Assembly (NCBI GenBank): GCA_049840735.1
Contig: JASGJN010000020.1
Coordinates: 832,001 to 896,000 of the forward strand
Reading direction: 5' to 3'
Length of the DNA: 64,000 nt
Origin: Anaeromyxobacter sp.
GTDB lineage: Bacteria > Myxococcota > Myxococcia > Myxococcales > Anaeromyxobacteraceae
In this document: in pieces, positions 12,628 to 16,260 of the stretch
How the letters are laid out: every line of letters starts with the position of its first letter
Numbering within the stretch: the stretch's first letter is position 1
Position numbers and translations under genes: made by a program
Notes under the pieces: model-generated
What the model saw: the letters and a program-made list of their open reading frames with translations, nothing else
Databases searched by the model: none
Told to the model about the DNA's origin: nothing

Positions 12628-13089
12628 TCACCCGCCTTGCGGCTTGAGCGCGGCCCGCTGGACGAGTTCGCGCGCCTCGCCCATGCGCGCGGCCAGGTCG
12701 GCCGCGATGGCCAGGGCCAGCTTCAGGCAGGCCTGGGGCTTGGTCGCCTGCAGCGCCAGGAAGTCGCGGTGGGCCAGCTCCACCACCTCGGTCTGGGAGG
12801 CGGCCACCGCCGAGACCAGCCGGACGCTGCGGGCCAGGATGCCCAGCTCGCCCAGGTGCTCCCCCGGGCCGAGCACGGTCAGCTCCCGCTCGCCGCCGTC
12901 GGACTTCTGGACCACGCGGACCGACCCGGCCTTCACGATGAAGAGCGACTCCCCCACCATGCTCTCCACGAAGAGCGGGCTGCCGGCAGGGAAGGCCTTC
13001 TCCTGCGCGATGCGCGCGAAGAGCTGGATCCCCACGTCGGAGAAGTCCTTGAAGAGCGTCGAGCTGCGCAGGGCCTCGGCCACCGTCAT
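12628..13089 (-). CDS. Cyclic nucleotide-binding domain protein
   Basis: LFIVKAGSVRV, LGPGEHLGELGIL, RLVSAVA cNMP fold; no HTH. Confidence 0.85.
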   Translation of the reverse strand: MTVAEALRSSTLFKDFSDVGIQLFARIAQEKAFPAGSPLFVESMVGESLFIVKAGSVRVVQKSDGGERELTVLGPGEHLGELGILARSVRLVSAVAASQTEVVELAHRDFLALQATKPQACLKLALAIAADLAARMGEARELVQRAALKPQGG

Positions 13090-13616
13090 CGCGCTGACCA
13101 CCCTTCCCTCACGTACTGCGCCGCGTAGGCCACGTAGTGGGCCGCGCTCACCGGCAGGTGCGCCAGCTCCTCCGGCGTGAGCGGGCGCTTCACCTTCGCC
13201 GGCTGCCCCAGCACCAGCGTGCCCGGGGGGACCACCATGCCCGGCGGGACCAGCGCCCCGGCGCCGACCATCGCGTCCGGGCCGATCACGGCCCCGTCCA
13301 GCACGATGGCCCCGATGCCGATCAGGCACCGGTCCTTGACCGTACAGCCGTGCAGCACGGCGCGGTGACCGACCGTGACGTCGTCGCCGAGGGTGGTGGG
13401 ATGGGTGTGCGAGGTCACGTGGACCACGCACTGGTCCTGGAGGTTGGTGCGGGCGCCGATGCGGACGGCGTTCACGTCACCGCGGACGACGGCCCCGAAC
13501 CAGAGCGAGCCGCCCTCCCCGATCTCCACGTCCCCGATCACCGCGCTGCCCTCCATCACGAAGACCGATGGGTGCAGGCGCGGCGACTTTCCGCCGAACG
13601 GCCGGATGATCGCCAT
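13086..13616 (-). CDS. Gamma carbonic anhydrase family protein (YrdA/CaiE-like)
   Basis: IGDVEIG, VVRGDVN, NLQD, VH, VGHRAVLHGC hexapeptide repeats with His ligands. Confidence 0.92.
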   Translation of the reverse strand: MAIIRPFGGKSPRLHPSVFVMEGSAVIGDVEIGEGGSLWFGAVVRGDVNAVRIGARTNLQDQCVVHVTSHTHPTTLGDDVTVGHRAVLHGCTVKDRCLIGIGAIVLDGAVIGPDAMVGAGALVPPGMVVPPGTLVLGQPAKVKRPLTPEELAHLPVSAAHYVAYAAQYVREGWSAR

Positions 13617-13860
13617 CAACGGCGGATGCTAAGAGATGTCCCACGGTTCGCCAAGTGGCAAAGCGTGGGCCAGGTCGGTTCGCCATCGGGCCCGCTCGGG
13701 CGTGGTCTGGCTTTCGCCAGCCTCATCCCGGGTTGGGCCCGTGGCCGTGCCGACGATTCGCCGAGCCACCGGCTTGCTTGCCGGTGTGGACGTCCGCCAT
13801 GCGAAGGACGGCTCGCGGGCGAAGAGGTCGGTTGACTCGGACCGGGCGTCTTGCCGCCCG
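13612..13860 (-). ncRNA. Putative omega-RNA scaffold plus flanking guide
   Basis: Nested stems at the tnpB 3' end and element end, including CUGGC-GAAA-GCCAG and CACCGGC/GCCGGTG; boundaries are inferred. Confidence 0.55.
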
Positions 13861-15614
13861 AGACAGCAAGGGCTTCGAAGAAGGCTCCCGATTTGTTCGC
13901 GGGCGCGCTTGGTCGCATCGTAGTCGACGCGCGCCGAGCCGGGCTCGCCGGGCCGATTGAGGACGAGGAAGGCGCCGAGGACCGCGGAGACGGCGTCCCT
14001 GTCCCCTTCCAGCCCGCATCGGGGGCAACGGTGGACCCGTTCGGCAAGCGACTTCTCCACCCGGGCGCCGCAGGGGCAGTGCTGGGACAGGGCTGTGGTC
14101 TGCGTGGGGATCCGGACCACGCCGCCAACGCCCCCGGCAAACGCAGCGACGGCCCGAGCCTCCCGGTCGATGGCAGCGACCAGCGTCCCCGGCGTGAACG
14201 CGGCCACACCGCGCCCCCATCTGCGCGCCCAGACGGAGATGGCCACGTCCTCGACGAAGAGGCGGTAGCCGTGAGTCCGCACAACCTCTGCCGCGGACTG
14301 CCGAGCCCGGCCGCGCCGTGCCTGGCCGCACGACGCTGCATCGGCAGCCTGCGCTGCGCGGAGAAGGCGGTAGCGCTTCGAGAGCGAGTCCCGCCGGTGG
14401 GCCTGGAGCGGGACGCCATCGAACCGCGCCAACCGTGGACCTCCAGGGATCACCTCGACCGGCGGGAGGCCGGCGGCAGCCCGCCGGCGGGCCCGCTTCT
14501 CCTGCCGCCTGGAGAGCTGGTACTCCGCCCGGTTTGCCGCCCGGCGCGACCGCTCCAGGGCACGCTGCCTGCGCCGTTCACGGCGCTTGCGACCCCGGTC
14601 CCGCACCTTGGCCTGGCCGTCCAGCTCCATCTTTGTGAGCCGCAGGCCCGCCCCAGCCATCTGGGAGACGACAGTCAAGTTGGACACGTTGACGTCAATC
14701 CCCGCCATGCGCTCCGCTTCGTCCTTGGCCGCCGCTTCCCGCCGCGCCTGCGTCGAAGGTGAGACGTACGGCTGGGCGAGGACCATCAGATGCGCCTCGT
14801 ACCGCCAGCCACCGGGCGCATACGGCGCGCGCGTACGCACGAGGTCGACCTTGTGCCAGCGGGCCGGGTCGACCAGGTGATGGTCCAGGATGGGCTGGTT
14901 GCACGGGGCGGTGGGGAGACGGACCGGCAGGACCAGGGCGCCTCCAGCCAGGCCGCTGAAGACCAGGGCCAGCGGCCCCTGGTAGGCCCACCAGTCGGTT
15001 CGCGGGGCAGCGGCCTCGGGGAGCTGGAGTCGCCTCGGCTGCACGAAGCTGCCGTCTGGCCTGGTGTACCTGGCCCGGTGGCCGGCGAGGGAGCCGTGGA
15101 GCCGGAAAGTCTCCCATTTCCGCTCCCGGGTGTGTGAGCGGGCCCGGCCAGGGAGCCGGGTGAAGTCGAACCAGCGCCCGACGTGGAGGAGCCCATGCCG
15201 CTTGCCGGTAGCGTCGGGGAACAGGTGGCGCTCCACCGACGTCCAGACCGAGTCGGCAAGGTGCATCGCCAGCGCCTTGGTGACGTTCCGCCGGAGGTGA
15301 GGCGCCGCGTCGAGGTGGGCGTAGGCTGTCTGCTCCAGCGCCTCACGCGTGAGTCCCAGTCTGGTGCGGGTCTCGGAGGCGCTTCGGGCCCGCGCATCCC
15401 CCGCCGCCCAGTAGGCCCGCACCCGGTCCCTTGCCGTCCGCTGCAGCGCTCGCCGGAGCTGGTAGGCCCCGGAGAAGATTCCCTCGAGCCGACGTCGCTG
15501 CACCGGGTCGTGGATGTCCAGCGCGAGCCGCAGCACAGAGAGCCCGTCCTCGGGCCGGCGGCTCCAGGGCCGCTGCCGGTTCGGACCACGGGTTGGCTTG
15601 GCAGACGCGCTCAC
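13629..15614 (-). CDS. tnpB: TnpB/Cas12-like RNA-guided RuvC endonuclease (C2c8/V-U2-like clade), ~661 aa
   Basis: RuvC-I AGIDVNVS, Arg-rich bridge region, RuvC-II LFVEDV, TTALSQHCPCG..HRCPRC zinc finger, RuvC-III DRDAVSA; GTG 15614 preferred as start, the ORF extends to 15821. Confidence 0.85.
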   Translation of the reverse strand: MSASAKPTRGPNRQRPWSRRPEDGLSVLRLALDIHDPVQRRRLEGIFSGAYQLRRALQRTARDRVRAYWAAGDARARSASETRTRLGLTREALEQTAYAHLDAAPHLRRNVTKALAMHLADSVWTSVERHLFPDATGKRHGLLHVGRWFDFTRLPGRARSHTRERKWETFRLHGSLAGHRARYTRPDGSFVQPRRLQLPEAAAPRTDWWAYQGPLALVFSGLAGGALVLPVRLPTAPCNQPILDHHLVDPARWHKVDLVRTRAPYAPGGWRYEAHLMVLAQPYVSPSTQARREAAAKDEAERMAGIDVNVSNLTVVSQMAGAGLRLTKMELDGQAKVRDRGRKRRERRRQRALERSRRAANRAEYQLSRRQEKRARRRAAAGLPPVEVIPGGPRLARFDGVPLQAHRRDSLSKRYRLLRAAQAADAASCGQARRGRARQSAAEVVRTHGYRLFVEDVAISVWARRWGRGVAAFTPGTLVAAIDREARAVAAFAGGVGGVVRIPTQTTALSQHCPCGARVEKSLAERVHRCPRCGLEGDRDAVSAVLGAFLVLNRPGEPGSARVDYDATKRAREQIGSLLRSPCCLGRQDARSESTDLFAREPSFAWRTSTPASKPVARRIVGTATGPTRDEAGESQTTPERARWRTDLAHALPLGEPWDIS

Positions 15615-15875
15615 CCGCTCATCGTGAATCCGGACCCTGACATTCCGTTCAGCACGACGGAGCAGGTCGTCCGCGGATCGACGGCGACCAAACCGGATCG
15701 TTCGCGACGCCGGCCTGGCGCCGTCACCGCAAAGCGCGCCCGCGTCGAGCACGTCCTCGCTCGCCTCAACGACTGGAGCGTCCTCGGGACCACCGCCGAC
15801 GGGGGTGCCACCCGAATGCACCGTCGCCGCCCGGCCTTCCTCTACGACCTCAAGCTCGAAGTTCGGGACGCCTCT
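13632..15875. mobile_element. Non-autonomous TIR element (IS5/ISL2-derived) carrying a TnpB-like nuclease
   Basis: Ends AGAGATGTCCC (13632-13642) and GGGACGCCTCT (15865-15875) form a 9/11 inverted repeat; flanked by TA (13630-31) and TG (15876-77); removing it restores the vanZ frame (..ARASIRR*) with a TGATG overlap into the next gene. Confidence 0.85.
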
Positions 15876-15878
15876 TGG
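15690..15878 (+). pseudogene. 3' relic of an IS5-family (ISL2/IS112-like, Harbinger-related) DDE transposase
   Basis: Across frameshifts reads NRIVRD..WRRHRK/RARVEHVLARLNDWSVL/RDHRRRG../AFLYDLKLEVRDAS; contains the R..VE...ARL..W catalytic-Glu signature and ends in the right TIR. Confidence 0.75.
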
Positions 15879-16260
15879 CCCGCGCCCCGGCGCGCCGCAA
15901 GGCGATGGTCACCGCGACCGCGCCGGCCAGCGCCCCGGCGGTATCGGCGGCCCAGTCGGTCGGGTCGCTGGAGCGGCCCGGCACGTAGGCCTGGTGCCAC
16001 TCGTCGGTCACGCCGTAGAGGCTGCCCACCGCGGCGGCCAGCAGCAGCACGCGCGCAGATCGGACCCCCGCCGCGTGCAGGGCGCCGGCCAGCAGCGCGC
16101 CCAGCACCGCGTAGCCCGCGCCGTGCGAGAGCTTGTCGTGCAGGAGGAAGGCCTCGGGGAACGGCGGCCGGGCGAGCGACGAGAGCCAGGCGATGAGCCC
16201 GGCCCACGCCACCGCGGCGAGCCCCAGCGCCAGGGCGGTGCGCCTCGCTGCGCCGCTCAC
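15850..16260 (-). CDS. VanZ family membrane protein (C-terminus altered by the insertion)
   Basis: DKLSHGAGY, YGVTDEWHQAYVPGR, DWAADTAG motifs; GTGA overlap with the miaB stop. Confidence 0.85.
   Translation of the reverse strand: MSGAARRTALALGLAAVAWAGLIAWLSSLARPPFPEAFLLHDKLSHGAGYAVLGALLAGALHAAGVRSARVLLLAAAVGSLYGVTDEWHQAYVPGRSSDPTDWAADTAGALAGAVAVTIALRRAGARAKRRPELRA

Follow-up and report, generated by a model that had tools for sequence, protein, structure and literature searches.

A TnpB and omega-RNA module, probably of IS5-family (ISL2-like) transposons that insert at CTAG

Introduction

TnpB proteins linked to DDE transposases, including those of the ISL2 type, are already in print. Six DDE-associated branches (DDE-1 to DDE-6), with inverted ends and solo copies, have been described (Altae-Tran et al. 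2023, PMC10691335), and a review gives the names ISL2, IS630, and IS1031 to DDE-associated branches (PMC13565253). What cut-and-paste DDE transposons gain from TnpB is treated as unresolved in that review (section 6.2), the puzzle being that excision already breaks the donor (PMC13565253). For the TnpB of IS605 elements, a cut-and-copy cycle has been shown, in which the empty allele is cleaved and then repaired from the filled one (bioRxiv 2023.03.14.532601). Experimental study of IS5- or ISL2-linked TnpB is apparently lacking; none was found in the literature covered, which mostly leaves out subscription papers.

Here, a tnpB locus of Anaeromyxobacter sp. is described within a 64-kb window (the whole stretch of DNA analysed, contig JASGJN010000020.1, to which all positions and strands refer unless another contig or locus is named). 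The gene and its RNA probably constitute the TnpB/omega-RNA module of IS5-family (ISL2-like) cut-and-paste transposons that insert at CTAG and duplicate TA. As the family fits what has been written of DDE-associated TnpB, its kind is already known, a comparison made by description.

Results

The limits of the element were set from the ends common to other copies and related loci and from the empty site in relatives:

13632..15875, − strand: non-autonomous insertion sequence, probably IS5-family (ISL2-like), 2244 bp, with tnpB and omega-RNA
13632..13642, − strand: terminal inverted repeat, omega-RNA end
15865..15875, − strand: terminal inverted repeat, transposase end, with 2 mismatches against the other end
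13630..13631, − strand: target-site duplication TA, omega-RNA side, from the empty site in relatives
15876..15877, − strand: left target-site duplication, CA instead of TA (mutated)

Copies in this genome end in CTA(A/G)GAG..GTCCC and GGGACA..CTCTTAG, and inverted ends of the form CTA(A/G)..TTAG bracket six places in this genome as well as related loci. At the empty site in relatives, CTAG stands directly before the window's right flank in 17 of 19 loci and both flanks abut in 13 of the 19, which places the element at 13632–15875, inserted into CTAG with TA duplicated. A 3- or 4-bp duplication was rejected, since no more than TA is shared by the two sides and agrees with the empty site. The omega-RNA end is TTAG in all loci (77/77), and the transposase end, read the same way, is TTAG (75/90), CTAG (9/90), TTAA (4/90), or another sequence (2/90). 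Membership of IS200/IS605 or IS607 was ruled out by the inverted ends, the TA duplication, and a DDE transposase instead of a Y1 or serine TnpA. CTAG occurs once per 4.7 kb in this genome. With its transposase lost and its left end damaged, the window copy probably no longer moves; judged from sequence, its nuclease and guide look intact.

The transposase itself is reduced to a remnant in the window:

15732..15878, + strand: C-terminal remnant of a DDE transposase, probably IS5-family, oriented divergently to tnpB and otherwise deleted (tblastn E = 1.9e-8 to residues 200–248 of an intact relative)

Only the last 48 codons are recognisable here, longer remnants are present in other copies, and a search of this genome with one query (assembly 94% complete) returned no intact cognate transposase. 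In complete relatives, the 780–850 nt between the left end and tnpB contain a divergent ORF, and this ORF ends in TAG or TAA at its element end. DDE_Tnp_4 scored above cut-off in all five ORFs scanned and HTH_Tnp_4 matched all five (above cut-off in 2), a Pfam layout from which we take the transposase to belong to the ISL2 group; the best NCBIfam model was NF033581 (IS5-family), at 40–54 bits against a cut-off of 140. A metagenome search gave 122 confirmed transposase loci, of which 80 were kept and 72 had at least 150 nt upstream. The transposase lies head-to-head with this tnpB in 69 of those 72 (2 of the 69 partly deleted), a count restricted to the near kin of a query transposase that itself came from an element with tnpB. 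These loci have the mark of DDE-associated TnpB, a DDE transposase no more than 1 kb from the tnpB, of which the window copy keeps the remnant only. Across 31 complete elements, TnpB and transposase identities correlate (Spearman 0.53, 0/2000 permutations).

The tnpB gene occupies most of the element and encodes the residues expected of a RuvC nuclease with a zinc finger:

13629..15614, − strand: tnpB ORF, 661 codons, folded part about residues 10–582
14694..14696, − strand: RuvC-I Asp307 (GIDVN), kept in 120/124 rows of the alignment
14250..14252, − strand: RuvC-II Glu455 (VED), kept in 116/124 rows, aligned to ISDra2 TnpB
14016..14078, − strand: C4 zinc finger (C513, C515, C530, C533; CPCG..CPRC), PF07282 above cut-off
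13995..13997, − strand: RuvC-III Asp540 (DRDAV, without Asn), kept in 114/123 rows, aligned to ISDra2 TnpB

A preliminary description of this DNA had reported the open frame of 661 codons and the motifs GIDVN, VED, CPCG..CPRC, and DRD, all of which lie where it put them. The frame upstream of the assumed start is open to 15821, and homologues align from residues 1–9 of the 661-aa form, in support of that start. Conservation was read from alignment A1 (124 sequences, hand-picked for length and spread from 120 + 150 listed matches and six loci), in which the four cysteines are kept in 112–116 of 123 rows and the misses at D307, E455, and D540 are mostly gaps in fragments. E455 and D540 align with the motifs around E278 and D361 of ISDra2 TnpB (numbering of PMC10097598), the triad being assigned only from position in the sequence and in the secondary structure. 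In RuvC-III, where DRDxN is usual, V takes the place of Asn in 94 of 123 rows, giving DRDAV, and with this replacement found across the clade nuclease activity could be low.

In an AlphaFold model (mean pLDDT 86.8; below 50 for residues 583–661), the window protein is a TnpB with a WED/REC/RuvC/TNB fold and ~575 folded residues. The best structural match is ISDra2 TnpB (8exa; Z 16.0, rmsd 3.5, 334 aligned, window residues 23–562). The VIA structure ranking sets TnpB (Z 16.0) above Cas12m (Z 12.3), and Foldseek lists Cas12m2 first by E-value (the top two matches), with poor TM-scores. The low pLDDT of residues 583–661 and their overlap with a structured RNA put the true folded size at ~575 aa; the term 'oversized' thus stands against the 408 aa of ISDra2 TnpB, but the 661 aa on which it was based overstate the protein. 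Residues 331–445 form an Arg-rich insertion (26% Arg).

The family comprised 910 proteins among 8000 scored candidates, mostly of 630–680 aa among the matches listed, with 161 family clusters at E ≤ 1e-30, and an Atlas search gave TnpB-like clusters only. The best named matches point to a host in Anaeromyxobacteraceae. A single-sequence search of solved structures with the window TnpB gave no match; in a profile search TnpB/TranC matched, only across the RuvC-II to -III stretch. A phage collection contained no match. Nucleotide conservation of the tnpB body by codon position (0.82/0.86/0.64) leaves the third position free and so indicates selection at the protein level.

Nucleotide conservation runs beyond the folded protein and ends exactly after TTAG, over the following features:

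13629..13859, − strand: predicted omega-RNA scaffold, ~230 nt, 5′ end approximate, overlapping the disordered last 79 codons (from fold z, covariation, and flat codon-position conservation)
13849..13854, − strand: GCAAGA loop of the 5′ hairpin; a predicted pseudoknot joins its last four bases to TCTT at 13631–13634
13613..13628, − strand: predicted guide, taken from the host sequence past TTAG and reaching into the first bases of the gamma-carbonic-anhydrase-like gene (assuming the ISDra2 length)

Unlike the tnpB body, the tail is conserved evenly over codon positions (0.80/0.78/0.80), pointing to selection as RNA. The last 250 nt of the window copy fold with z = −4.2, better than 200 of 200 shuffles. 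A consensus from 47 Myxococcota-type tails (chosen out of 60, near-duplicates dropped) has 43 pairs, 25 of them with compensatory changes; once the terminal hairpin and the pseudoknot were added by hand, 95.8% of cells were paired and 29 of 53 pairs showed two-sided changes, the weakest helix being the terminal hairpin (84%). Covariation exceeds all 500 shuffles and all slid controls, p-values from these related sequences being overstated. At the 77 loci with both anchors found (of 148), the variable pseudoknot pair is A-U in 54, G-C in 18, G-U in 1, and A-C in 4. One actinobacterial group supplies 15 of the 18 G-C pairs, so that this covariation amounts to few independent events, and the other group has 3 G-C pairs against 4 A-C mismatches. 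Rfam held no matching family, with two chance-level matches only. By these computational measures, an omega-RNA overlaps the 3′ end of tnpB and stops at the element boundary.

The pseudoknot of the ISDra2 omega-RNA ends two bases before the guide (PMC10097598). If the same register is applied here, the guide would begin right after TTAG and CTAG would be the TAM; as the filled junction never rebuilds CTAG, this would give self-protection. The fixed T at the end is explained by the pseudoknot alone, and TAM avoidance need not be involved. CTAG followed by a match to a 12-nt guide was absent from this genome for all five copies searched (5/5).

The reading frame is kept through the RNA. The stop of the window tnpB (TAG) is made of the duplicated TA and a host G, and a target-derived TAG ends the ORF in 63 of 77 loci. 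Tail length is a multiple of three in 68 of the 77 loci and in 16 of 22 distinct lengths (binomial p = 2e-4, kinship ignored). The tail peptide is predicted to be disordered, yet its frame is maintained; it is possible that translation protects against transcription termination before the guide, or that it releases the folded TnpB beside its own RNA.

Both flanks carry host genes, the downstream one reached by the predicted guide:

13086..13619, − strand: gamma-carbonic-anhydrase-like host gene, downstream of and outside the element (NF050158, 191.9 bits, below the cut-off of 250)

The empty site in many relatives (L151–L168) has TTGCG, 17–18 bases, and TAGCAT, resembling −35 and −10 boxes, before this gene. 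The element landed in the −10-like box (13624–13654 and 15878–15900, − strand), and its end offers TTGGCG 17 bases before TAGCAT, which, read by eye, is possibly a hybrid promoter; a sigma-70 scanner flagged no promoter in 13400–16100. The upstream gene (15821–16260, − strand), which we assume to be VanZ-like, now reads into the element, and its C-terminus has been changed by the insertion.

TnpB matches six places in this genome, with an unbroken frame in the window copy only. The copy at C13:617628–618180 has both ends and the whole omega-RNA with almost no tnpB, C22:684344–685391 is without omega-RNA, C16:38040–39587 has an internal deletion, C26:346621–348944 a frameshift, and C2:52620–53340 is rearranged. 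The window TnpB could serve the guides of broken copies in trans.

A strict search found the family in 3 of 301 genomes of the phylum. The same tnpB–transposase layout occurs on Euzebya and Mycobacterium plasmids, and complete elements are present in cultured Actinomycetota (e.g., Euzebya pacifica). Dactylosporangium has a broken autonomous copy and solo copies; the solo elements there, 2.1 kb long, contain the same tnpB and RNA between a second set of ends, which differ but keep the form CTA(G/C)..TTAG; a pattern search for the autonomous partner of these solo elements in Dactylosporangium salmoneum recovered only the solo elements' own ends. The solo tnpB elements L050 and L051 directly adjoin a transposase gene, presumably IS630-like, with a CTAG-type boundary in common, an arrangement that is probably a nested insertion.

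In genome G316, ~390-bp elements consist of just the RNA scaffold and a sequence that resembles a promoter (five are nearly identical, and another three are at 86–88%). In the guide-RNA-only MITEs L211, L214, L221, L222, and L223, TTGACT-17-TATTCT lies upstream of the scaffold. The last 29 bases of the ~390-bp elements match the end of an IS5 element (L213), whose transposase is above the cut-off of NF033580, another IS5 model. These sequence matches suggest that two IS5 groups, both targeting CTAG, have had the module pass between them. IS605 has guide-only elements of its own, known as PATEs (bioRxiv 2023.03.14.532601). The same genome has a tnpB-free 1.3-kb element with similar ends (L180:885–2208), its transposase 44% identical to the query and preceded by ~400–600 bp of other sequence.

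Discussion

The family has defined ends and a defined target site, complete relatives with a divergent DDE transposase, a TnpB fold with its triad, and an RNA that covaries and stops at the end of the element. By analogy, the most likely use of this machinery is a cut-and-copy cycle as in IS605 TnpB. Transcription would run through tnpB and the element end into host DNA, and the folded RNA would be closed by a pseudoknot at UCUU, two bases short of the flank, in the manner of ISDra2. With the guide taken from the host sequence past TTAG and with CTAG as the TAM, TnpB would cut empty alleles (CTAG + flank) and spare the filled allele (TTAG + flank), and recombination would copy the element back into the cut empty allele. 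For this, a DDE element would need sister or incoming DNA to supply empty alleles, or an excision precise enough to restore CTAG. The excision sites of the PIF/Harbinger MITE mPing are reported to be repaired precisely (PMC4561436), and Harbinger has been grouped with the IS5 family (PMC12730594).

The same element and RNA might instead serve a protein that binds but makes double-strand cuts poorly if at all, a roadblock in the style of Cas12m or TldR that, for instance, guards or silences the empty allele or the neighbour gene. The missing RuvC-III Asn, the Arg-rich insertion, and the Cas12m2 matches that head the Foldseek results would suit such a protein, as would a predicted guide that covers the −10-like box and the start of the host gene. 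We nonetheless regard it as unlikely: all three acidic residues are conserved in >90% of rows, the VIA ranking favours TnpB over Cas12m, the Cas12u1 profile has no match to the window TnpB at E ≤ 1, and the element is mobile with guides that differ at every copy, unlike a domesticated regulator. Less probable again, and very much so, is that tnpB is inert cargo, the relic of an IS605-type element that once landed in an IS5 element and has been carried without function. Five of the six places in this genome are broken and the family is sparse in the phylum, as that would predict, but the body is selected as protein and the tail as RNA, the IS5 end is both the exact limit of the RNA and one of its pairing partners, and the link between tnpB and IS5 holds across Myxococcota and Actinomycetota.

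The preliminary description had likened the protein to C2c8, the type V-U2 effector, a kinship that does not survive comparison with cyanophage CL131 gp061, which has been assigned to type V-U2 (PMC6293099). The two share a TnpB-family RuvC and zinc finger. The PADLOC Cas12u2 profile, however, scores 525.9 bits over the length of gp061 (466 aa, with an adjacent CRISPR array) and 19.4 bits on the window TnpB, restricted to residues 506–551 in the zinc-finger/RuvC-III stretch; gp061 aligns with A1 over 70 columns only, and it lacks the W..RWG, TPG, and T.LSQ motifs that were said to be V-U2-like. On these grounds, V-U2 membership was rejected. That the 64-kb window has no repeat-spacer array was correctly noted: repeat finders reported none there (nor did they report the 11-bp element ends), and none was found beside the gene in 151 loci (795,659 bp; simple scanner; many short contigs), where the scan gave two matches, both coding repeats. 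This genome does hold two CRISPR-like arrays (C12:53240–53800 and C13:473940–474200) far from the element copies, that on C13 ~140 kb from the nearest one. An orphan C2c8/V-U2 effector using such a distant array, or a descendant of that clade, could draw on these two arrays and on the weak Cas12u2 match; set against the profile scores, the scanned loci, and a gene with its own omega-RNA and transposon ends, we hold it to be extremely improbable.

The preferred reading, a TnpB/omega-RNA module of CTAG-targeting IS5-family transposons, may be extended, tentatively and with more doubt than belief, to a long-lived IS5–TnpB partnership locked to CTAG. CTAG would be insertion site, TAM, and source of the stops of both genes; the duplicated T would close the pseudoknot; translation through the whole RNA would be required (e.g., for loading of its own guide in cis); and the module would have spread to the ends of another IS5 group that targets CTAG and given rise to guide-only MITEs with a promoter. 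If true, this would be the first worked example of a bacterial DDE transposon gaining from RNA-guided homing.

A derived, oversized TnpB with an intact-looking triad and an omega-RNA in place of a CRISPR array, as the preliminary description had it, is supported computationally, cleavage being predicted. Its picture of the locus kept the gene, overlooked both the inverted ends and the omega-RNA as well as what remains of the transposase, and missed the probable IS5-family DDE context. Its suggestion of a compact genome editor is weak, since ~575 folded residues and a 230-nt RNA make it larger than the TnpBs characterised so far and the CTAG predicted as its TAM is rare; as an editing tool the protein is unremarkable in size and its range is probably limited by that TAM. 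The value of the family lies in how completely a test can be specified (from the ends, the target site, and the transposase to the fold of the omega-RNA, the boundary of the guide, and a predicted TAM), and it makes a good test case for why cut-and-paste elements retain TnpB.

Among known systems, the DDE-associated TnpB are like this family in having a DDE transposase beside TnpB inside terminal inverted repeats, the 3′ end of tnpB within 250 bp of the element end, and solo tnpB in the same ends (PMC10691335). For the ISL2-linked branch, the text consulted describes neither an omega-RNA structure, a TAM, or a target site, nor a constraint on the frame or an experiment. ISDra2 TnpB of the IS605 family (PMC10097598; PDB 8exa, 8h1j) has the same fold, D-E-D triad, and C4 zinc finger, a disordered C-terminal tail overlapping the RNA, and a pseudoknot closing two bases before the guide, as is predicted here. 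It differs in having ~375 folded residues, a 33-residue tail, and DRDEN, where the window TnpB has ~575, 79, and DRDAV, and in belonging to an element with a Y1 transposase and hairpin ends, where the window family has a DDE transposase, inverted ends, and a TA duplication; unlike in ISDra2, the window ORF reaches the very end of the element. The Fanzors in TA-duplicating DDE transposons (PMC13565253) are alike in that the 5′ duplication is expected in the TAM and the 3′ duplication in the RNA scaffold, as predicted for this locus. These are eukaryotic, and Fanzor1 is without the pseudoknot that, at this locus, is predicted to include the duplicated T.
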